Source: Escherichia phage FEC14. From it: a stretch of DNA of 64,000 nt. Position numbers and translations under genes: made by a program. Position 1 is the stretch's first letter. Each line of letters begins with the position of its first letter. Positions 50 to 48,336 of the stretch are shown here, piece after piece. The notes beneath the pieces are model-generated. The model searched no databases and was not told the DNA's origin. It saw only the letters and a program-made list of their open reading frames with translations. The stretch is from sequence record MG383452; one strand, written 5' to 3'.

Positions 50-688
50 TTAAGGTGTTGGATTGACAACGGGAATATGGAACCTGATTCCAGAGACAAT
101 GTCCTTCAGCTGAGGCTTCCAGCCGTCCACCAGGCGGGACAACGCGTTAGAACCAGGATAGACAATAATGATGTCGCTTCCGGTTACATTATGTTGAGGG
201 AATTGTGACATGTATTGCTCCATCGTCACCCCTGGGTCTATCAACACAGGACCGACATCCGAAGATGCATATGTTGCCCCCAAACCGTCGACGCCCCATG
301 CTAGTATTCCATAATCAGGAATATTGGCTTCAGAAGTTATGGTGAATCCGAAGATACGATTCAGCGCAGAAAAATCATACACGCCGTGAGCACTGTCATA
401 TGTCAGATAACCCTTTGACAGCATATCAGCGAATATCGCGTCTGTGTCACCAGTTGCCGGAGTCGGTATGGTAAACAATAACTCACCAGCAGGAGGGGAT
501 GGATACGTGCCGAGCGCATAAAGGCACCAAGCGTCAATGCATTTCTTGATGAATGCTTCAGGCGCGACATAATCCGCAAGGCGCATTGTACCGGAATATT
601 CTGAAGTAATGATCCCTTCCTTCGCGCCCTGAATGGCCAGAAATACCATTATGTGTTCATATCCGGTCTGAGATGGAGTGATATTCAT
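50..688 (-). CDS. hypothetical protein (212 aa), translationally coupled to the upstream transglycosylase gene
   Basis: Long minus-strand ORF co-oriented with neighbours; start overlaps stop of the 688..1305 ORF; no motif recognised. Confidence 0.5.
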   Translation of the reverse strand: MNITPSQTGYEHIMVFLAIQGAKEGIITSEYSGTMRLADYVAPEAFIKKCIDAWCLYALGTYPSPPAGELLFTIPTPATGDTDAIFADMLSKGYLTYDSAHGVYDFSALNRIFGFTITSEANIPDYGILAWGVDGLGATYASSDVGPVLIDPGVTMEQYMSQFPQHNVTGSDIIIVYPGSNALSRLVDGWKPQLKDIVSGIRFHIPVVNPTP

Positions 689-1305
689 TATCTGGTCCTC
701 TTGAGTTTCTCAATCGTGCGCTTATTCATGGCGATCACTCCTGGGTCGACCTTTGGGTTTATTGCCATGCCTTTGAAAGACACACATCGTTGAAGATATT
801 TAGCCTTCTTCACGACGTCGGCTGCATAAGAATTGGATTTCTGGTTACGATTGAACCCAGCATTGTAAGAGGAAAGGGATTTGCGGATGTTTTGGTTATG
901 ATATTCTAGCCAGAAATTCATTTCATCAAGGGCAGCATTGGCAGCATATTCTTGATTGACCAGTAATTTGATCGCCACGTTGGCGTAACACTTCTGTGTT
1001 TTGCATCCCTCCCGTTTCCCGACGGTTTGGACGCGATTTTGAAATGCCCCCATATTAGCCGATTTGAGGTTATTCCGCATGGATACAACATCTTCTCCAG
1101 CGCGGCTTTCCCTCCATGATATTGCGGCGAGAGTGAAACCAAGGTCTTGTTGTTTTCCCACGTGATAGGCTGTGGCCATGGTTGAAAGTTGTTGATCAGA
1201 AAACTCATAATCACATTGGGTGGTACTTTGGGAAGCGTGCACACTCCCGCTGGCAATGGTAAAGGTCACGGACAAGGCCATGGCCTTCAACGTTGTCATC
1301 GTCAT
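688..1305 (-). CDS. secreted lytic transglycosylase (SLT-domain, lysozyme-like)
   Basis: N-terminal signal peptide (MTMTTLKAMALSVTFTIASGSVHA); SLT catalytic motifs ES (ISWRESRAG), GAFQ and SYNAG read in the translation; AAGGAA RBS upstream. Confidence 0.6.
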   Translation of the reverse strand: MTMTTLKAMALSVTFTIASGSVHASQSTTQCDYEFSDQQLSTMATAYHVGKQQDLGFTLAAISWRESRAGEDVVSMRNNLKSANMGAFQNRVQTVGKREGCKTQKCYANVAIKLLVNQEYAANAALDEMNFWLEYHNQNIRKSLSSYNAGFNRNQKSNSYAADVVKKAKYLQRCVSFKGMAINPKVDPGVIAMNKRTIEKLKRTR

Positions 1306-2462: not shown

Positions 2463-4792
2463 TCCTTCTTAATCACTTCGGTCATGCCATTACGCAGACC
2501 ATAACGAATGTTATGTTGGAAATATTCTTGGAACTCCTGTTCACGCTGACTGATGACAAACAGATTGTTCCCACCAAATTTATGTTTCAGCATCTCAACC
2601 GATTCTTGTACGCCACGCTCGCTCATGTTCTCAAGGATTTCATCTAACACAAACAGGTTACATTGCACCGACGCCTTGAGGTTGGCCACGTCCCGTAGGG
2701 CTAATGTCACAGCCAGATTGAGTCGGCTGCGTTGTCCTGTAGACAGGGAGAATATGCTTTGCCCTTTACGACCTGCAGCGCTCATGGTGATTTCAAATGT
2801 ATCATCAACAGCAATATCCAAGAACATATTGAGTGCTTCAAGATACTCGTTTATTTTACTATTGAGGAAAGGCAAATACAGGCTGATAATTCGAGCCTTG
2901 GTCTGATCATCTTTTAGGAAGAACAGAAGATGGTTCAGGTCTTGCAATTTCTCATCCAACTCTACGCGCCGCGCATTCAGATCTTCCATTAATGCCGTGA
3001 TGCGAGCGATCTCTCCTTCCAGGGCTTCAGTTGGTGTCGGCTTAACCGCCAATTTACGCTCTAAATCGGCAATGGATGCCTCTAGAGGGGCACGGCGTGA
3101 TTTCAGGCTGGTGAGTTTATCAGCCGTGTCGTTGATACTCTTAGAGAGCTGCTCACGCGCTTGACGGATTGACGTCGTGATATCTTCGTAACGGGTGTCT
3201 ACGGCCTTGAGGACGTCGTTAATTTTGGACTGTTGTTCCCGCTGTAAAGATGTTTTCTCAACAGCAGCGACATCATAGAATCCTTGGATGTCGCGTTTTA
3301 ATGTAGCGATCGCCGATTCCGCTTCTCGGATTTCATTGCGCAAAGCATCCAGTTCTTTGTCAATAACCGAAATCTGAGAAGATAATTCTGAATCTCTGAC
3401 ATTGTAATTCTCAATCAGGGAATTCACTTCTTCTAGGGCTGTATCAACCTGAAGAATCTTGTCAGTCAGTTCACTGATTTGTGGATAATATTGACTTTCA
3501 ATGCGTGATTTGGTATCGTCCGACACTAATTGCGTACACGTAGGGCAAGTGCCCATATCGTGGAAACGTTTGATGGCAGATTCATGTCCTTCCATTTCTG
3601 TTACGAATTTGATACGGAAGTTCTCACCCTGCTGACGCCGCGCTAATGCTTTGTTCAGTTCATCCAGGTTAGCATTCCGTTGGCTGACCAGATCATTTTT
3701 ACGTTCCGCGACTACCGCCATTCTCTCCCGAATTTCTTGTAATGAACGTTCGCCATCAGACACCTCGATACGTTCATAGTCTTCAGCCTTGGTATCAGCA
3801 TCATCCTGAACTGCTTGGATTTTGGCCGCATACTCTTCATTGATGGAATCGATATCCACCTTCATTTCAGCGTTCAGGCGATTACGGACTTCTGATAATT
3901 CAGTTTCTAATTTAGAATCTTGGGCACGGAATTCCGTCAGTTCGTCTTGAGAAGCACCAATATCTGAATTCAAACTATTCAGACGTTCCTTCTCTTGGAC
4001 AAGGATATCAGCAGATTGTTGCTGGATCATCGCATTGGAATTATTGATCTGTTCCAACTGCGCTTGCTGGCCTTTTAAATTTACATCATGAAAGGCGTAA
4101 TCATTGGTGACCGTCGTGAGTTCATTCGTTACTGTCTTGATAGATGCTTTTACATCTTCATTCATCAGACTGAAGAACCCCAAATCCCAGATTGTCTCTA
4201 CCATAGCGCGACGGTCGGCAGTGTACATTTCCGTGAATGGGATGAACTTCTCTTTGCCCAGAACCAGGGAGTTCTCAAACATCTTCTGGTCCACGCCAAT
4301 CAGGTTCACAATATATTTGTTCATGTCGGCTTTGGCCGCATCATTCACGACCTTCTTCCACTCACCGTCTACCATCTGATAGACTTCTACGAAATCAGGT
4401 TTGATACCACGACGGACTTTCCATTCACTTCCTCGAGTGGAGAACTCAACTTCACCCACGCATTCCTTTTTGTTTTGGGAATTGACTAATCCGGCTTTCT
4501 TTTCTTTCTTGCTGTATGTGTCATTATACAGAACGAAGAACAGCAGCCAGACAAGCATGGTGGATTTACCAGCGCCATTGTCATCGGATGTAACCAAGGT
4601 TGCCGAATTGCGTTGGTAATCAATTTCCATGAATTCATTACCGATAGAACGGAAGTTTTTAGCGCGACCGCGATGGAAAGTCAGTTTGTGGGTAATTTCC
4701 CCACGAATTTCAAATGGTACTTCAACAGAAACAGGAGTGTCCGCTTCTTTCAACAGCGAACCAAATTTTGATAATAGGTCTACATTGTTCAT
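2459..4792 (-). CDS. 46: recombination endonuclease ATPase subunit gp46 (Rad50/SbcC-like)
   Basis: Walker A GAGKST near N-terminus, long central coiled-coil, C-terminal LFVLDEILE...NLFVISQREQEF matching T4 gp46 C-terminus (LILDEVFD...VFIISHKD); immediately downstream of the gp47 gene as in T4. Confidence 0.9.
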   Translation of the reverse strand: MNNVDLLSKFGSLLKEADTPVSVEVPFEIRGEITHKLTFHRGRAKNFRSIGNEFMEIDYQRNSATLVTSDDNGAGKSTMLVWLLFFVLYNDTYSKKEKKAGLVNSQNKKECVGEVEFSTRGSEWKVRRGIKPDFVEVYQMVDGEWKKVVNDAAKADMNKYIVNLIGVDQKMFENSLVLGKEKFIPFTEMYTADRRAMVETIWDLGFFSLMNEDVKASIKTVTNELTTVTNDYAFHDVNLKGQQAQLEQINNSNAMIQQQSADILVQEKERLNSLNSDIGASQDELTEFRAQDSKLETELSEVRNRLNAEMKVDIDSINEEYAAKIQAVQDDADTKAEDYERIEVSDGERSLQEIRERMAVVAERKNDLVSQRNANLDELNKALARRQQGENFRIKFVTEMEGHESAIKRFHDMGTCPTCTQLVSDDTKSRIESQYYPQISELTDKILQVDTALEEVNSLIENYNVRDSELSSQISVIDKELDALRNEIREAESAIATLKRDIQGFYDVAAVEKTSLQREQQSKINDVLKAVDTRYEDITTSIRQAREQLSKSINDTADKLTSLKSRRAPLEASIADLERKLAVKPTPTEALEGEIARITALMEDLNARRVELDEKLQDLNHLLFFLKDDQTKARIISLYLPFLNSKINEYLEALNMFLDIAVDDTFEITMSAAGRKGQSIFSLSTGQRSRLNLAVTLALRDVANLKASVQCNLFVLDEILENMSERGVQESVEMLKHKFGGNNLFVISQREQEFQEYFQHNIRYGLRNGMTEVIKKD

Positions 4793-4794
4793 TA

Positions 4795-5910
4795 TTATGC
4801 ATCCAATGTGTTCAAACGTTGTTGGGCAGCATTATAAAATTGTTCTGCAAGTTTGCAAACATTTTCAGGGCGCTGGATATTGTTGGCTGCGCGGATATCA
4901 TTTTTCAAGACTTCTACAGCATCAGTAGCCACCATCTCTTCAGTGACTTCTACCTTCTCGGAAGCAACAGTAATCGTCCGATCGATGAAGTTGTAATCGA
5001 TGCATTTACAGCGCTTCAATGCGTCACAGAACTTTTCATAATGCTTGGCATTGTCACGGTTCTGTACAATCACCTTAACGATTTGCCCTTCAATACCCAA
5101 AACATTGTTTAACCAATCGGGGTCGATCCAATTACCTTCAGTATCAGAAGACATTTGTGTGTAGTCGTATTCCACGAACCGGAACAACGTTTGTTGTTCG
5201 TTGTTGGGGATAAACAATTCCCCGCCATTCATGTCGTCTACATAGAATCCTCGGTTCGTCCCGTCTTTGTGGTCTTCCCAGGTAAGATGATAAGGAGTCC
5301 CAATATACTGAATGTTACCTTCCATCGAACGGGTATGGAAATGTCCGGTATCCACGCGCTCGAATTTCGAAAGGAGCGCCAAGTCGATCTGACCTTTATC
5401 ACATACAGAGGACTGGTACATTTTGAACCCTGCCAACTCCAGATGCGCAAAACAGTACTTGGCGTCTGTATCTTGTATCGCTTTAATGGACGCATCATAG
5501 TTCTCTTTGTTAATCCACGGCAGTAGGAGGGTCTTGACACCTTCAATCATTACTTCAGTTGGTTCGCTGTAATAATGATAAACATCCGGTGCCAATTCAT
5601 TAAGATAAGAAGGCCAGTTAATGCGATTGGACTCTTCTAACGTGATATCATGGTTTCCAACGATGCCATTCCATTTGATACCCGCCTTTCTCAGGGCTGG
5701 CGTTAATTCATCTTTCAACCAATCTTTATCGCGACCATACATGAATTTGCGAACATCAAACGTATCACCAAATTGCCACACTTCTTTAATATCGGCGTCA
5801 ACCAATTCTGGAATAAAATAATTGATGAGATAATTCTTTATGAATTCTCGAACGTAACGGGAACCATTACGGCTCCCGATATGTAAATCGCCAATTTTAG
5901 CAATCGCCAT
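4795..5910 (-). CDS. 47: recombination nuclease subunit gp47 (Mre11/SbcD-like phosphoesterase)
   Basis: Phosphoesterase motifs GDLHIG, GDTFDVRK, VGNHD, GHFH align with T4 gp47 (GDWHLG, GDIFDVRK, VGNHD, GHFH). Confidence 0.9.
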   Translation of the reverse strand: MAIAKIGDLHIGSRNGSRYVREFIKNYLINYFIPELVDADIKEVWQFGDTFDVRKFMYGRDKDWLKDELTPALRKAGIKWNGIVGNHDITLEESNRINWPSYLNELAPDVYHYYSEPTEVMIEGVKTLLLPWINKENYDASIKAIQDTDAKYCFAHLELAGFKMYQSSVCDKGQIDLALLSKFERVDTGHFHTRSMEGNIQYIGTPYHLTWEDHKDGTNRGFYVDDMNGGELFIPNNEQQTLFRFVEYDYTQMSSDTEGNWIDPDWLNNVLGIEGQIVKVIVQNRDNAKHYEKFCDALKRCKCIDYNFIDRTITVASEKVEVTEEMVATDAVEVLKNDIRAANNIQRPENVCKLAEQFYNAAQQRLNTLDA

Positions 5911-6703
5911 TATTTTGTTGCTCCCGTTCTAATGCTCGTTTCTTTGCTTCTTCCCAATCTGGTTCCATAGAACATATTTCGTCTTCCAGATTGAATTGAG
6001 TAGAGCCGAAGTCATAGTCTGAATTATCTTCGGCGTCGGCGGTAATGGTATTTTCACTCTTTGTGAGACATTGAAGTATACCGCGAGGAATTTTCTTATT
6101 CTTTTCCTCTTCTTTGATGGCGATTTGCTTTTGGCGTTCCTTTTCGCGCTGTGCTTCTTTCTTAGTTTCAAAATTTCCGATACGCTCACGGAAGTCCATT
6201 GTTATACCAGTGCTGTCTACGAATGTCTGTTGCTGGAAGTCTGGGTCATCTGATAATGCAGCGAAACCACCTGCTTCTTCAAATGAACGCAACTTGATAT
6301 AATTGTGTTCTTCTTCACTGGTGAGTTTCTTGGCGAATGAACGATCGGCGCACATCGTTACCCAAGAGAAGAAATTGATTTTTCCTTTCTTGCCGATATG
6401 ACTGACGTCAAATGTATGGAGGTAACGAAGAATGTTAACAACGGCCTCACTGACCATGTCTTCGCGGTATGGATAATCACGATAGTTGTAGCGCATACTC
6501 ATGTTCTTAATAATCATCTGAACATTCATGGCCACATAATTGGGGATTCTTGGTAGGGGTGTTCCTTCGGCCAAAGCCTTTTTGCGAGCCGGAATCCAAT
6601 CTCTCAATATTCCAACAACACGGTCATTATCTTCGTCTGTGAAATATTTGGTGACGTTATCACCCCTGTCTACAAAATTCATACCCATCGTGATAATCCT
6701 CAA
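5897..6703 (-). CDS. 55: late-transcription sigma factor gp55-like, with extended charged C-terminal tail
   Basis: Central region (YNYRDY...LHTFD...FAKKLTSEEE) parallels T4 gp55 (FNFSGY...LHNFD...QRIKKERKE); sits directly upstream of gp47 as in T4 (55, alpha-gt, 47, 46). Confidence 0.55.
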   Translation of the reverse strand: MRIITMGMNFVDRGDNVTKYFTDEDNDRVVGILRDWIPARKKALAEGTPLPRIPNYVAMNVQMIIKNMSMRYNYRDYPYREDMVSEAVVNILRYLHTFDVSHIGKKGKINFFSWVTMCADRSFAKKLTSEEEHNYIKLRSFEEAGGFAALSDDPDFQQQTFVDSTGITMDFRERIGNFETKKEAQREKERQKQIAIKEEEKNKKIPRGILQCLTKSENTITADAEDNSDYDFGSTQFNLEDEICSMEPDWEEAKKRALEREQQNNGDC

Positions 6704-7242
6704 ATACCAATGAATTCATTGAAAGAACCAACGACTTTCTTGACCGAGAAACGGTTATTTTCAAGAACCATTGAACTATCTTCTTTGGCTCTAACGCTCC
6801 ACTGATCCGCAATTTCGTTGCCCATCGTTCCTGCATGACCTTTCACCCATTTTAATTCAAGTTCACAAATTGAACAAACTTTGTCATAATAATCGAACAA
6901 CTCGAGCAGAAGTTCTGTGTTCTTAGGCGGCATTCCTTCATATTCCCATTTACGACGCCACTCCAAAACGCTATTGATAACATATTGGCTGTCGGATATG
7001 ATGCGGGCTGGGGGAATGCAGCGTTCACCGCAATTAGAGAATTTCCATAGGATCTTCATTGCGTTTATAACCCCGAGTAACTCAGCTATATTGTTCGTTG
7101 ACGGCGGGGGTAAATACCCATAAAACACTTTCCATTGCTCTCCAGTGATTGGACTGATGGCAAATGCCCAACCAGCGGCTCGTGTCTTCTGAGGGGATGA
7201 TGCCCCGTCAGTGTATATTTCAATCATGTATAAGTATCCCAA
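6700..7242 (-). CDS. ribonuclease HI (bacterial RnhA-type)
   Basis: RNase H motifs IYTDGAS, NNIAEL, SDSQYVIN, VKGHAG..GNE.AD align with E. coli RnhA (IFTDGSC, NNRMEL, TDSQYV, VKGHAGHPENERCD). Confidence 0.8.
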   Translation of the reverse strand: MGYLYMIEIYTDGASSPQKTRAAGWAFAISPITGEQWKVFYGYLPPPSTNNIAELLGVINAMKILWKFSNCGERCIPPARIISDSQYVINSVLEWRRKWEYEGMPPKNTELLLELFDYYDKVCSICELELKWVKGHAGTMGNEIADQWSVRAKEDSSMVLENNRFSVKKVVGSFNEFIGI

Positions 7243-42993: not shown

Positions 42994-43452
42994 CTAATTA
43001 GTCGTCAATCTTTTAATCTTCATGGAAGAAAGATCGAAACCATGATGAACATTACTTGAAACAGGTTCGATTTCACACAATTCCCAACGGGGATCTATGA
43101 GAGAAACAAGACCAATGTGTTCACCTGTGGATGTCAATTTTGCTGCAGTTTTACCCAGCATATGACTTCCATCATTACCGCCTTTATTCATGTTGTAACC
43201 CATCTCATAAGAATTATATTGAGCGATGAGTTGCTTCTCTAATTCCCATTTATGGACTTCATCGGTCTGAGCAATTACAACGAAAGTAAATCCAGATGTT
43301 CCATACTTACGCATAGCATCATACAATTCACTTTGGACTCCATGATGAAAAGCATTCGCAAAATGCTGATCATATCTTCGTTGTGGGTCATTGGTCACAC
43401 CGATGTAGACCTTTCCATTAGTTATCGTTTCAATTTTGTATGCGTATATCAT
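42994..43452 (-). CDS. GIY-YIG homing endonuclease (free-standing)
   Basis: N-terminal IYAYKIE...GKVYIGVT...RRYDQH is a canonical GIY-YIG motif; inserted between gp18 and gp19. Confidence 0.8.
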   Translation of the reverse strand: MIYAYKIETITNGKVYIGVTNDPQRRYDQHFANAFHHGVQSELYDAMRKYGTSGFTFVVIAQTDEVHKWELEKQLIAQYNSYEMGYNMNKGGNDGSHMLGKTAAKLTSTGEHIGLVSLIDPRWELCEIEPVSSNVHHGFDLSSMKIKRLTTN

Positions 43453-43510: not shown

Positions 43511-45406
43511 TTATGAAGCAGCAACGATGCCGCCACCGGATTCGATTTCGCTGAACTCCATATCTGGTCGAACTGCAGCAAAATCCAAATAAATCCAGTT
43601 AATGCTGTACTCAGGCTTCAACCAAATACCAGCAACCATTTGGTTTGCCGCAATGATATCAGCAGTGTTGTTGTCTTCATCACATTTGACTTTACCATCG
43701 TAAATCGCGCCCATATTTGCCAGCTGGCGAATATATGGACGAACCGCATTGCTGAACAGACCACGTGTAAACGCGTCATTGTTCTCACCAAGATAGTATT
43801 TGGCGATTGCGGCGATGTTCTGCTCAGCCATGATGAACAGGCCACGAACGTTGATACGGTCAAACGCCGACGGGCGGGTCAGGCCAGTTTTGTCACCATA
43901 CAGGACGATGCCTTCATTGGAGAAGGTTACGATGCTGTTGATCTGGTTGCGGTACAACACAGCACGTTCATCAGAAGATGCAGACCACGCCATTCGATTA
44001 TAGTTGTTGTATTTACCACGGTTGTGGAACGCCGGAGATTTGTAGATACCCGCGATTTCAATGCTTCGCGCCCAAACACCTGCGGTGCCACCACAAGCCG
44101 GAATCCAACGCATTTTGTCGTTGTACTTGTCGTACACATATGCCCAGTTATCATCCATGAAGAAATAAGAAGAGTCGCGAACAAGGCTTTCACGCCAAGC
44201 AACGACATCATCCATTTCACGACCACGGTTGCCAACAACCGTATCACGGAGCGGGGATACGAAAGATACCGTATCTTTTCGCTCAGTAGATAAGTCGATC
44301 AATGCTTGTTGCTCAATCAGTTCTTCACAGTACGCAAATACTGGCTTCGCATCATATGCTTCAGCATTGTTCAAGACTTGGATAGCTGCCACGCGGTTGA
44401 TGTTATAATCGTCTACGCCGCCTTCTAATTCAACAACACCTGCGGCCAGAGCGGTAGCGAAGGTGTACACCCAATTTGATGTATCATTGATGACATCTTT
44501 GAAGTACGCATTCGCGCCATCGGACTTTTTGGAACCCTGTGTGTTCTGCATGAGTTCGTATTTTTCGATAATAGAACCAGATGCGCCAACAGTGGTAATC
44601 ACGGCGGTTGCAGTCAGCCCCTTATCATCTGGAACAATAGCAGTAACTGTCTGGGGACCAATAGCTTTATGGGTCACGATGACAGTGTTGGACTTCACGA
44701 CAACAGAAGAATAAACACTTGTCAGGGAAGTTAGTGCTGTACCGATTTTGGTTGCCAAATCGGCTGGAGTATCAGTATCCAGATATGCGATATCTTCACC
44801 TGCCACACTGATGGTGCCAGCAGCAGTAGCCGTACCAGAAACGGAGATACGGTCAACCTGACCGACCGCGCCAGCAGAGTCGGTAATGCGACCAACTTTG
44901 TCTACGACAACTACATGGAATTCACCAGACTGAGGTGCGTATGCAAAGTTATTACGGAATTCCCAAGTTGAGAATCCAGCAGCATCACAAACATTGATAG
45001 CAATATCATTACCCAGGGAACCTGGATAACGACCAGTCCAAGTGATGGACGCCGAAGGACTTGCTGTTTCAAAATCCAGTTTGTTTTTGATCGCAATCGC
45101 TGTCTGACCTTTGGTAACAGAGTTCTTGGCCAGAGGACCAACAACACGGGTCACCCATGCCATAGAGCTGTAAGACAAAAAGTCCGCGATTACGAGAAAA
45201 TCGGTCGCAGTACTGTCGTTGGGTTTGAAGAATTTCTTCACCAAACCTGTCTCACCACCAGTCACCAGCACTGGAAGTTCAACTTCACCCCATTGAAATT
45301 TTCCGACGGTCGCGCCCTGAACAACAACGGACGGGGACGTCTGAAGCGTGGCATCACGCTCAGTCCACTGAACGGACGGCGCAACGCTGAAGCTTTGAGT
45401 TGCCAT
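43511..45406 (-). CDS. 18: tail sheath protein gp18
   Basis: GKFQWG motif near N-terminus matches T4 gp18; true start taken as internal ATG (MATQSF) with GAAGGAA RBS, since the track start at 45439 appears to be a non-ATG codon. Confidence 0.9.
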   Translation of the reverse strand: MATQSFSVAPSVQWTERDATLQTSPSVVVQGATVGKFQWGEVELPVLVTGGETGLVKKFFKPNDSTATDFLVIADFLSYSSMAWVTRVVGPLAKNSVTKGQTAIAIKNKLDFETASPSASITWTGRYPGSLGNDIAINVCDAAGFSTWEFRNNFAYAPQSGEFHVVVVDKVGRITDSAGAVGQVDRISVSGTATAAGTISVAGEDIAYLDTDTPADLATKIGTALTSLTSVYSSVVVKSNTVIVTHKAIGPQTVTAIVPDDKGLTATAVITTVGASGSIIEKYELMQNTQGSKKSDGANAYFKDVINDTSNWVYTFATALAAGVVELEGGVDDYNINRVAAIQVLNNAEAYDAKPVFAYCEELIEQQALIDLSTERKDTVSFVSPLRDTVVGNRGREMDDVVAWRESLVRDSSYFFMDDNWAYVYDKYNDKMRWIPACGGTAGVWARSIEIAGIYKSPAFHNRGKYNNYNRMAWSASSDERAVLYRNQINSIVTFSNEGIVLYGDKTGLTRPSAFDRINVRGLFIMAEQNIAAIAKYYLGENNDAFTRGLFSNAVRPYIRQLANMGAIYDGKVKCDEDNNTADIIAANQMVAGIWLKPEYSINWIYLDFAAVRPDMEFSEIESGGGIVAAS

Positions 45407-45448
45407 AATATCATTCCTTCTCGGTAGAGTTTCGCTCAATTTGAAAGA

Positions 45449-45458: not shown

Positions 45459-47669
45459 TCAATTCTTAAACCACTCATCCATGGTCATCCCTGACATTTC
45501 GTTGAAAACTTGAATACCCCCGAAACCAGGCAAATGCTCAGTTTCGGATGGGGTGTCTCCAACGACTAAACCACCAAATGGGAATACCTGCTGAGATTCA
45601 GTTGAAGACATTCGGTTTCTCATGTCCTGAGAAATACTTGTAGATGTCAAATCACTGAACCATTCTTGTTTAACTGCCCAAGAATATAAGACCAACGGCA
45701 TGACACAGTCATCGTGACAACCGTCATCGGCTTCATACCGAGCGCCTTTGAACACAAATGTACTGAGTTCATCTATCGTGTCCTGGTCTTCTATCACCAA
45801 CATTTCTTTCTCAATGAGCGCTTTCAGGTTAGCACAACCGATAGATCGGACTTTTCTGTTGGTATTGATACCAGGTTCCGGTTTACGTCCACCAATCCGT
45901 TTCCCCGTCCCTTTGTTATCTGTTGATGTGAATATGATTTCTGGATATTCTATCTCTTGATAAAGAATTGTAATAACCTGACCGCCGACGTCGTTGTTTG
46001 TTTCAACAAGGACAGGGCATTCCCCGTATTCGGTGCACATATCAGCTATCGTGTATGCATACATCATAGGAGGTATCGTGTTATTCCTGTACTTGGCTGC
46101 TATAACATGCGGATATTCAGTTATATCCAGAATTGTTAAGACGGAATAATCTCCTTCCACCCCCTTCCCAGTGTCCGCAATCCCAAAGTAGAGACGTTGT
46201 GGGTCGTATTCCTTATAAATCTTGGTGAATTCATTAGGTTCCCGATACAACTTGGACGTCATTTTATCTAAGCATTTGGCCGGAATCAATGAACCCACGG
46301 AACCACGGAACTTAATGCCAAATTCTTGATCGAAACGAGCATCCCCCAGACGGGCACGTTGTTTGGTTTCCCAATCTGGATCTTTGGTATATGCCGGAAC
46401 CTTATACCATGGGACTTCAGTTAGGTGGAAGTCGTTGTATTGTGGATGGCGCGGATCTGCTTTGGTGACAATATCATAGAACAACCCTCGCTGGCCTTTC
46501 GGAGTACTTGTCAAAATACAGCGTGATGTATCGGCAGATGCAATGGCTGGGAAAGTTGATTCCCAAAATTCAAAGTCGTTTTCGATAAACGCGACTTCGT
46601 CAACGTACAAGAGCGATACAGAACGACCACGGATGGAGTCCGAAGACGTGGCATAAGCGTATATCTTAGAACCATTCTCAAACTCTATCAGGGTAGAACC
46701 AAACTTCTCACAACCCTGCTGAAGGAAGAATGGGAGGTCCTGATACGCCTTCCTGATACGGTCAAGAATTTCAATCGCTTGTTTCTCTTTGTTTGCCAGT
46801 ACCGCGATTTCTTTGTCTGAGTGGAACATCGCATACCAAAGAAGAAACGCAGCCACGACCGTGGTATTATGGCTGAGGAACCCATTCGTGTAATAACGTT
46901 GATCGCTGGACTTGACTTGCAAGTCATACATGTGGTGGTACTCACCAGTCTCCCAGATCTCAGAGATGAATTCTATTCCCTCCTGGGTCATTATGGCATC
47001 TCCGGCCTCCATGTCTTTAGCAAATACTTCGCGCCCATATTCATTGAAGAACATGTGCTCATCTGCGACATGAATTGTGCGTCCGGTTTCAGTCCTGACA
47101 ACGTATTCAGCGTATTCTTTCGTTTTATGAGCGGCAATAACCGGAACCCAGCCAGTGTCGGACTCAACAAAATATCGTTTCCCGAAACGGCTGTCTACAA
47201 ACTTATTGTGGTTGCCAATGGTATTCAGTGGCACAGCATGGTTCGGTCCTTCGAAGCGCTTGTGAAGCTCTTCTATGGTGAGATGCAACTCTTGTTGACT
47301 GATTGTATCATAGACATAAACAAGAGTATCACCACGGACGCATTTACCGGACTGACGAGCCTGGACGACCGCATTGAATCGATAGTCCTGAAAGTCGTGG
47401 AACAACTGCTTCTGATAATCATGCATATCGAAAAGGATAAAGCCCTTATCGATCGTGGTTATCTTGTAATAGTTGGCGGCGAAGTAGTGTGCATCCATAG
47501 AACATTCAACGAATTCGTCTTCTTGTTCATCTGTCAGCATTAACTCGACTCGAGGAGCACGCACAGAAGGTTTGCGCATGAACGTTTGGTCCATACGCAA
47601 TTTCACATCGTCTATTTTGAACCCCGTTTTAATTGGGGCATATTCTATATCACGCTTCTGATACGCCAT
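45459..47669 (-). CDS. 17: large terminase subunit gp17, interrupted by an in-frame mini-intein
   Basis: N-extein ends QARQSGK and C-extein begins TTVVAAFLL, together reconstituting Walker A (T4: SRQLGKTTVVAIFL); 736 aa total. Confidence 0.9.
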   Translation of the reverse strand: MAYQKRDIEYAPIKTGFKIDDVKLRMDQTFMRKPSVRAPRVELMLTDEQEDEFVECSMDAHYFAANYYKITTIDKGFILFDMHDYQKQLFHDFQDYRFNAVVQARQSGKCVRGDTLVYVYDTISQQELHLTIEELHKRFEGPNHAVPLNTIGNHNKFVDSRFGKRYFVESDTGWVPVIAAHKTKEYAEYVVRTETGRTIHVADEHMFFNEYGREVFAKDMEAGDAIMTQEGIEFISEIWETGEYHHMYDLQVKSSDQRYYTNGFLSHNTTVVAAFLLWYAMFHSDKEIAVLANKEKQAIEILDRIRKAYQDLPFFLQQGCEKFGSTLIEFENGSKIYAYATSSDSIRGRSVSLLYVDEVAFIENDFEFWESTFPAIASADTSRCILTSTPKGQRGLFYDIVTKADPRHPQYNDFHLTEVPWYKVPAYTKDPDWETKQRARLGDARFDQEFGIKFRGSVGSLIPAKCLDKMTSKLYREPNEFTKIYKEYDPQRLYFGIADTGKGVEGDYSVLTILDITEYPHVIAAKYRNNTIPPMMYAYTIADMCTEYGECPVLVETNNDVGGQVITILYQEIEYPEIIFTSTDNKGTGKRIGGRKPEPGINTNRKVRSIGCANLKALIEKEMLVIEDQDTIDELSTFVFKGARYEADDGCHDDCVMPLVLYSWAVKQEWFSDLTSTSISQDMRNRMSSTESQQVFPFGGLVVGDTPSETEHLPGFGGIQVFNEMSGMTMDEWFKN
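46866..47342 (-). mobile_element. mini-intein (about 159 aa) inserted in the Walker A P-loop of gp17
   Basis: Insert starts with Cys directly after GK, ends with His-Asn, followed by Thr; no homing-endonuclease domain (too short). Confidence 0.7.
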
Positions 47670-48336
47670 CGTCTTCTTCCTTCACATCAACTGTTTCACC
47701 ATCAATGATTTCATCTTCTGGTTGTTGTGCGGCCTTTGCTTGTGCTCTTTCTTCAGCGCGGCGGCGTGCATCTTCGATCGTCTTCAATAAATCGCGAGAA
47801 GATCGCGCCTTTTTCCCAACCGATACTGTTGTTGTTCCGTCTGGTGAAGTTGTAACATCCACTGTCGTGTCATCAACAGGTGGTTCTTTATCACCTGTTA
47901 CTGCCTTGATGGTTTTCTGGTTTTCCATCAAGTCTTTATTCAGACCTCGCATGAGTTCACCCAATTCACGGAAAACAGAAAATGCTCGCGGAGCTTCTGT
48001 GGATGCAGCCAATTTAGCGGCTTGTCCCATCATGAACATTGTGGCTTCTTGCATGGCATATGTTGTGTCGCGTATCCGTTTGTAATCCGTTGTAGCATCA
48101 GTGTCCGCAAACTCAGGTACTTTGGATTCCTTGGAAGCAATATCCTCCAATGAAGGCGGTTCAGGAATCGGCTGATACCCTTCCGGACGTTCACCAAACC
48201 ATTCACCTGTATTTTCATCGAAGTCAATACCTGGACGAGGGGCGACAGCCTCCATTGCCTCCTTCCCAACTTCGTCTCGGGCAGTCACCGCATCAAGTGT
48301 GGCGAGTAACCTTTCTGACATATTGCTCATGATCAA
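47650..48336 (-). CDS. 16: small terminase subunit gp16
   Basis: Located immediately upstream of and overlapping gp17; central region resembles T4 gp16. Confidence 0.65.
   Translation of the reverse strand: MIMSNMSERLLATLDAVTARDEVGKEAMEAVAPRPGIDFDENTGEWFGERPEGYQPIPEPPSLEDIASKESKVPEFADTDATTDYKRIRDTTYAMQEATMFMMGQAAKLAASTEAPRAFSVFRELGELMRGLNKDLMENQKTIKAVTGDKEPPVDDTTVDVTTSPDGTTTVSVGKKARSSRDLLKTIEDARRRAEERAQAKAAQQPEDEIIDGETVDVKEEDDGVSEA

Follow-up and report, generated by a model that had tools for sequence, protein, structure and literature searches.

The gene for the large terminase subunit (TerL) of Escherichia phage FEC14 lies on the minus strand at positions 45459..47669 of the 64,000-nucleotide stretch of sequence record MG383452 analyzed here (the window). 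According to the open reading frame (ORF) listing, Pfam, and the structures of T4 gp17, it encodes a T4 gp17-type large terminase of 736 amino acids (plus the stop codon). Its ATP-binding loop is interrupted by 159 amino acids, Cys110 to Asn268 (46866..47342, minus strand), which can be regarded with high confidence as a functional class 1 mini-intein without endonuclease, located between the invariant lysine and threonine of the Walker A motif (P-loop). This assignment draws on the alignment with T4 gp17, on intein-free relatives, on Pfam, and on a structural model from AlphaFold2 compared with known folds by Foldseek. A preliminary description of the window had already placed a mini-intein of about 159 amino acids in the Walker A motif, which proved accurate in both site and length (exactly 159 amino acids, residues 110-268). 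The coordinates it gave (45459-47669) correspond to the whole TerL gene, of which the intein itself occupies only 46866..47342.

The boundaries of the insert emerge from the comparison with T4 gp17. When the TerL sequence was searched against the PDB (phmmer), T4 gp17 (3ezk and 3cpe) aligned with it as two blocks (E = 7e-69), the first of which (residues 28-109) ends at ...SRQLGK166 of the T4 protein and the second of which (residues 268-675) resumes at K166/T167 (...TTVVAIFL). Because the alignment breaks at this position, the Walker A motif is cut exactly between Lys and Thr. The junctions read ...NAVVQARQSGK/CVRGDTLV...YYTNGFLSHN/TTVVAAFLLWY (slashes mark the ends of the intein). The N-extein, residues 1-109 (47343..47669, minus strand), aligns with T4 gp17 up to K166 and ends with the Walker A half RQSGK (47343..47357); the C-extein, residues 269-736 (45459..46865, minus strand), aligns from T167, begins with Thr269, completes the Walker A motif as GK/TT, and is further identified by Terminase_6N and Terminase_6C. 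Against the 736-residue protein, Pfam returned Terminase_6N (E = 3e-16) and Terminase_6C; between these lay a weaker match to Intein_splicing. The precursor has a predicted mass of 84.8 kDa, of which the intein accounts for 18.6 kDa; the ligated exteins, predicted at 66.2 kDa, come close to the spliced product of about 65 kDa that had been anticipated. The insert and the exteins are alike in G+C content (46.1% vs 44.3% and 44.7%).

That removal of the insert restores the Walker A motif, as the preliminary description had it, is seen in T4 gp17 and also in close relatives naturally devoid of the intein. A protein search with the full TerL retrieved uninterrupted homologues of 575-581 amino acids (P0015-P0019), the C-exteins of which are 74-85% identical. 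They are encoded on metagenomic contigs sharing the gene order gp13-gp14-gp15-terS-terL-sheath-tube-portal (gp13-gp20). Across the insertion site these proteins read ARQSGKTTVVAAFLLWYA, which is identical to the predicted splice product (ARQSGK/TTVVAAFLLWYA at the Lys/Thr site), and the DNA at the empty site of their genes matches the joined flanks of the occupied genes. Because intein-free homologues read ARQSGKTTVVAAFLLWYA across the site, chance is excluded. In a neighbor-joining tree of the exteins, P0015-P0019 nest among TerL proteins bearing the 159-residue intein; therefore, presence or absence of the intein is polymorphic among close relatives. A classified member of the Ackermannviridae without the intein is Vibrio phage YC (Campanilevirus), whose uninterrupted TerL of 583 amino acids matched in one piece. 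The intein was present in every isolate examined from six genera (Kuttervirus, Agtrevirus, Limestonevirus, Taipeivirus, Miltonvirus, and Vapseptimavirus). When the 159 residues of the intein alone were used in a word-indexed protein search, two short entries were all that came back, and the full TerL together with an exhaustive profile search was used instead. A tblastn query with 30 residues spanning the junction could not single out intein-free isolates, its two 15-residue halves being reported separately. The Kuttervirus-type, intein-split TerL junction was also encountered in OR844942.1 ("Enterococcus phage Efm 3-10"; 111 kb) and MN871475.1 ("Pseudomonas phage Pa-sanjiao"; 158 kb), where the match is as good as in Salmonella phages; the host labels of both records look doubtful.

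The insert carries the residues expected of a class 1 intein. Inserts were cut from 22 TerL homologues with a K/C...HN/T junction (150-181 amino acids; two further ones of 443-447 amino acids), and 20 of them, with identities down to 32%, were aligned to assess conservation. Invariant in all 20 were C1, A93-D94-x-H96, D140, and L156-S157-H158-N159 (intein numbering). In the window, these positions correspond, all on the minus strand, to Cys110, the block A nucleophile (47340..47342); to the block B motif A-D-E-H (A93-D94-E95-H96; 47055..47066), which aligns with block B of the gp41-1, VidaL, and Cat inteins and includes the catalytic histidine (H96, His205 of the precursor; 47055..47057); to the block F aspartate (D140; 46923..46925); and to His267-Asn268 of block G, the penultimate histidine and the cyclizing asparagine (46866..46871), where the intein_Cterm model TIGR01443 matches weakly (residues 248-269). 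The first residue of the C-extein, the +1 nucleophile Thr269 (46863..46865), has a Thr counterpart in 22 of 22 extracted junctions. The class 1 hallmarks named beforehand, Cys at position 1 and His-Asn at the C-terminus followed by Thr, are thus conserved throughout. A class 3 intein (WCT triplet, block F Cys, and no nucleophile at position 1) was considered as well, and was ruled out by Cys1 and by the invariant Asp at block F position 4.

Profile and fold comparisons led to the same family. On the insert alone, Intein_splicing (PF14890) scored E = 3.5e-8 and was the sole Pfam match; no endonuclease domain (LAGLIDADG, HNH, or GIY-YIG) was detected by Pfam in the 159 residues, consistent with the earlier view that the insert lacks a homing endonuclease. 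A profile of the intein family, searched against the PDB, found gp41-1 (1.7e-10), VidaL (2.5e-10), and the Cat-TerL consensus intein (2e-8). The AlphaFold2 model of the intein, computed from the alignment, had a mean predicted local distance difference test score (pLDDT) of 95.4 and a predicted template modeling (TM) score of 0.87, and suggests a single compact Hint domain with a short two-helix insert. The latter is modeled in the N-terminal part of the intein (residues 23-45; 47208..47276, minus strand), with helices at residues 23-29 and 36-43. All 50 of the PDB matches listed by Foldseek were Hint-fold domains (47 inteins and three BIL2 domains) at a probability of 1.00; the inteins included VidaL (the best match), Pho RadA, Mtu RecA, gp41-1, and Npu and Ssp DnaB, and the target-normalized TM score reached 0.85 among the matches listed. 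Wherever the synonymous rate (dS) was measurable, the ratio of nonsynonymous to synonymous rates (dN/dS) of the intein was ∼0.03-0.15; the insert is therefore a translated sequence under purifying selection. Two of the checks that the preliminary description had suggested, alignment to intein-free gp17 sequences and a search for a Hint domain, thus turned out in favor of the intein.

Several observations weigh against a functional intein. At the block B position that is usually Thr, the intein has Ala (A-D-x-H vs T-x-x-H), a deviation shared by the crystallized VidaL (6vgv). The PF14890 score of 33.9 bits is just under the curated cut-off of 35.8, and the NCBIfam models intein_Nterm and intein_Cterm both remain just below theirs (TIGR01445, 20.7 vs 24.5 bits, E = 6e-4; TIGR01443, 13.4 vs 15.6). 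Scores that miss a curated threshold and are nevertheless significant by E-value are read here as the probable signature of a divergent subfamily rather than of non-membership. Finally, the searched literature contained no experiment on this protein or on any TerL intein of the Ackermannviridae; one proteomics paper lists TerL peptides and a "terminase large subunit precursor" and gives no information on the junction.

The narrowly missed Pfam and TIGRFAM thresholds and the exchange of the block B Thr for Ala would equally suit a Hint domain that has decayed and lost its ability to splice, and so would the combination of a missing endonuclease with presence in every examined isolate of six genera, as expected of an old immobile element. 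TerL would then have to work with a domain of 159 residues in its P-loop, or another ATPase would have to substitute for it. Such decay is, however, very improbable: the catalytic positions are all invariant in sequences that are just 32-41% identical overall, and the dN/dS values of the intein are low wherever dS could be measured. Moreover, ATP binding requires the Walker A Lys and Thr to be neighbors, as they are in T4 gp17, and the intein-free relatives show that TerL functions with an unbroken loop. The window contains neither a second TerL nor, when its six-frame translation was searched with the hidden Markov model of the family, a second copy of the intein.

A bacterial intein-like (BIL) or pretoxin-Hint domain, which would cleave without ligating, might be considered, since the record of Dickeya phage phiD3 names the gene "pretoxin HINT domain protein" and BIL2 domains occur among the weaker fold matches listed (ranks 41-47). 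Yet the Thr at +1, the terminal Asn, and the penultimate His are features of inteins and not of BIL or toxin-Hint domains, true inteins were the best matches in both fold and sequence, and the insert is located inside a catalytic motif that is strongly conserved in an essential enzyme, where its precise absence leaves a functional sequence; this possibility hardly deserves credence. Excision from the transcript by way of a group I or II intron can practically be dismissed, despite the fact that introns and free-standing homing endonuclease genes occur in T4-like phages including relatives, that a GIY-YIG gene is located 2 kb away in the window, and that a GIY-YIG domain interrupts terL of Vibrio phage VP-1: the insert is open in frame from end to end, contains the intein blocks, and has a confidently modeled Hint fold, its substitutions are mostly synonymous, as expected for a translated sequence, and Rfam matched no intron or other RNA family between 45000 and 48500 at E up to 1.

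To judge by its conserved catalytic residues and by relatives with demonstrated activity, the intein of FEC14 would splice by the canonical class 1 route. Translation would yield an 84.8-kDa precursor in which the ATP-binding loop is physically broken, and the intein would fold into its Hint domain and act in cis. An N-S acyl shift at Lys109-Cys110 would be followed by transfer of the thioester to the side-chain oxygen (hydroxyl) of Thr269; cyclization of Asn268, assisted by His267, would free the intein of 18.6 kDa, and an O-N shift would then establish the peptide bond between Lys109 and Thr269. The outcome would be a TerL of 66.2 kDa with the contiguous Walker A motif RQSGKTT, and the packaging ATPase, and hence phage production, would rely on splicing.

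The terL gene of the window is 100% identical over 2211 nucleotides to that of vB_EcoM_JN03 (OR885871.1; Kuttervirus, Cvivirinae, Ackermannviridae), where the coding sequence vBEcoMJN03_0520 is labeled only "hypothetical protein." Within the genus, the intein exists in two types, as became apparent from a comparison of 11 Kuttervirus genomes (L002, L004, L009, and L017-L024). JN03, SFP10, STML-13-1, bering, Marshall, and allotria carry type M; CBA120, Mutine, PhiSH19, SE14, and phage 38 carry type C. The two differ by ∼27% of nucleotides. The association of variable sites with intein type delimits a dimorphic haplotype block of ∼610 bp, nucleotides 324-936 of the gene (46734..47346, minus strand), which comprises the intein and 132 nucleotides of the C-extein; within it the sites track the intein type almost perfectly, and the association ends at both edges. 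The TerL exteins of JN03 and CBA120 are identical at 577 of 577 amino acids (extein dS 0.03-0.08), their inteins only at 78.6%, with synonymous sites saturated. Conversely, JN03 and Marshall have an intein dS of 0.01 and an extein dS of 0.7-0.9. On the DNA level, JN03 equals CBA120 except in nucleotides 294-936 of the gene, and equals Marshall almost only in nucleotides 313-960. The synonymous difference between M and C (pS 0.77) exceeded that of every extein resample of 159 codons (0 of 500). Because the types differ by 27% of nucleotides and are saturated at synonymous sites, the alleles predate every divergence of the exteins within the genus.

It is thus well supported that the cassette has been reshuffled among extein backbones, that is, that an endonuclease-less intein has moved between lineages by recombination. 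Such movement extends beyond the subfamily: type C shares nucleotides ∼270-720 of the gene (∼450 nucleotides) with phage PC3 (Aglimvirinae) at ∼5% difference, compared with 15-25% in the exteins. The patch centered on the intein was considered as proof of targeted homing, and this was rejected, since terL of Kuttervirus is mosaic over its whole length and one breakpoint of the PC3 exchange falls inside the intein, so that ordinary homologous recombination is explanation enough. It appears rather unlikely that the exchange has an active driver or is maintained, be it by a free-standing homing endonuclease acting in trans ("collaborative homing") or by balancing selection on differing splicing behavior of the two alleles. 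The idea of drive derives from NUMOD3 and GIY-YIG genes beside or near terL in relatives; that an endonuclease acting in trans provides it is conceivable, yet lacks support. The nearest such gene in the window is the GIY-YIG ORF 2 kb away. The terL gene of Salmonella phage 38 is annotated as two coding sequences (L021, 1274..2656 and 2680..3483), and its 3′ part is out of register, with ∼50% positional mismatch; this probably reflects a frameshift or sequencing indel and not biology.

Relatives of the intein occur in split and enlarged form. The exhaustive search with the intein-family profile yielded 2731 cluster representatives at E up to 0.001, many of which start a few residues before intein position 45, as a C-terminal piece would. 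On the metagenomic contig SRR23684539_56284 (L025), where the gene order is as in the window, TerL is divided between two genes, with the break at this Walker A position: the first (4424..4915) encodes ...RQSGK followed by an N-intein piece of 52 residues, and the second (5001..6788), after a gap of ∼85 nucleotides, encodes a C-intein piece of 124 residues followed by TTVVGAF.... Two metagenomic TerL proteins, P0056 and P0083 (948 and 983 amino acids), contain inteins of 443-447 residues at the same site. Their extra ∼290 residues are charged, of low complexity, and located near the N-terminus of the intein, not between blocks B and F; Pfam detected no endonuclease domain in these inteins. Both this extra sequence and the breaks of the split genes fall at the position of the two-helix insertion predicted for the window intein.

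Further irregular terL loci were noted. The annotated "TerL" of Vibrio phage VP-1 (Vapseptimavirus; 738 amino acids; L011, 1485..3701) contains a P-loop intein of 179 residues and, following the ATPase domain, a GIY-YIG domain (residues 506-589), and the next ORF (3790..) is labeled "terminase like family protein"; this terL seems to be interrupted a second time, by another mobile element. In Salicola phage SCTP-2 (440 kb), a coding sequence for a "terminase large subunit" of 297 residues (L010, 1992..2885) starts ∼3 codons before the match to intein residues 47-159, and looks like another split TerL. A related intein segment is present in Pseudomonas phage PA5oct (L013) and in Cassandra, in genes labeled "structural protein" and "UvsX-like recombinase." In SKML-39 (L008) and Dickeya phage Ds23CZ (L005), an ORF of 292 residues with a NUMOD3 motif (409..1287) is located between terS and terL and overlaps the start of terL. 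It is annotated "homing endonuclease" in SKML-39, is absent from this position in Kuttervirus, MK-13, and PC3, and adjoins terL only in SKML-39 and Limestonevirus.

The surroundings of terL in the window follow the T4-like gene order. The gene is flanked by that of the small terminase subunit (47650..48336; assigned by Pfam DNA_Packaging) and, on the other side, by the tail sheath gene (43511..45439). The tail sheath and tail tube genes are separated by a free-standing ORF of 152 residues encoding a GIY-YIG homing endonuclease (42994..43452, minus strand; Pfam E = 2.5e-11), located ∼2 kb downstream from terL. An ORF of 240 residues runs opposite to the intein region (46821..47543, plus strand); nothing was found to mark it as a gene, and it is most likely spurious. 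No tRNA genes were found in the window.

The value of the assignment lies chiefly in annotation, since in many Ackermannviridae records the label is "hypothetical protein" or simply "terminase large subunit." The spliced product of 577 amino acids is predicted to be the mature packaging ATPase, and residues 110-268 should be removed before TerL is expressed, modeled, or used for tree-building. The intein adds one more case to the well-documented preference of inteins for the P-loops of phage terminases. A modest side result, and an addition beyond what is already known, is the reshuffled two-allele cassette, which could be a convenient natural system for studying the spread of endonuclease-less inteins.

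The intein as such is not new; the same element with the same boundaries has been annotated and published for near-identical phages. GenBank entry KF669653 (Salmonella phage Marshall, Marshall_50) describes an [quoted passage not shown] and lists the mature peptides as features of their own, NC_049462 (Klebsiella phage Magnus) is annotated in the same way, and RefSeq holds the excised intein as a protein (mature peptide "intein," YP_008772116.1). The inteins of Marshall and Magnus are 99.4% and 84.3% identical, respectively, to that of the window on the amino acid level. The intein-interrupted large terminase is also stated in the genome announcements of Marshall (PMC3853055), Maynard (PMC3868846), Mooltan (PMC6486243), and Magnus (PMC6763660). 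The Marshall/Maynard TerL intein (Kuttervirus) agrees with that of the window in host gene, insertion point, length (159 amino acids), and boundaries (Cys110-Asn268); the extein backbone of the window and JN03, however, is CBA120-like and not Marshall-like.

In sequence, the nearest characterized relatives are the atypically split TerL inteins AceL-TerL and GOS-TerL and Cat (PDB 6dsl), a consensus engineered from them, which are experimentally active and splice in trans (PMC11766414). They and VidaL (PDB 6vgv) are of one sequence family with the window intein, and the TerL inteins among them also share the host protein; CatC matched the family profile at E = 2e-8 over intein residues 46-158. 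AceL-TerL, GOS-TerL, and Cat are split between two genes (the N-terminal piece being short and the C-terminal one ∼104 residues long), whereas the window intein is contiguous, encoded by a single ORF, and predicted to splice in cis; where the split TerL inteins break, it has the two-helix connector (residues 23-45). GOS-TerL uses Ser1 and Cys+1 (PMC11766414), the window intein Cys1 and Thr+1.

The Lys/Thr position in the P-loop is a "classic" insertion point, represented by TerL1-a of mycobacteriophages (Kelley et al, 2016, PMC5050341). Mycobacteriophage TerL inteins splice efficiently, and the mapped sites suggested that assembly of the pentamer is unlikely with the intein present (PMC5050341). 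TerL1-a occupies the same Walker A position and shares the predicted need for splicing to form the ATPase site and the oligomer, but its host is a Terminase_1 protein, whereas that of the window is a T4-type Terminase_6 protein, and no specific relationship between the intein sequences was established here. The Terminase_6 inteins described in the same study (PMC5050341) occupy another site, the C-motif, and some mycobacteriophage TerL inteins have active endonucleases, whereas none was detected in the window intein. The best sequence match in the PDB, the gp41-1 mini-intein (6qaz; 1.7e-10), is likewise a compact, phage-derived class 1 Hint domain (target-normalized TM score 0.84); it differs in that its host is a helicase, that it occurs in nature as a split intein divided at the canonical site, and that it has Ser in block B where the window intein has Ala.

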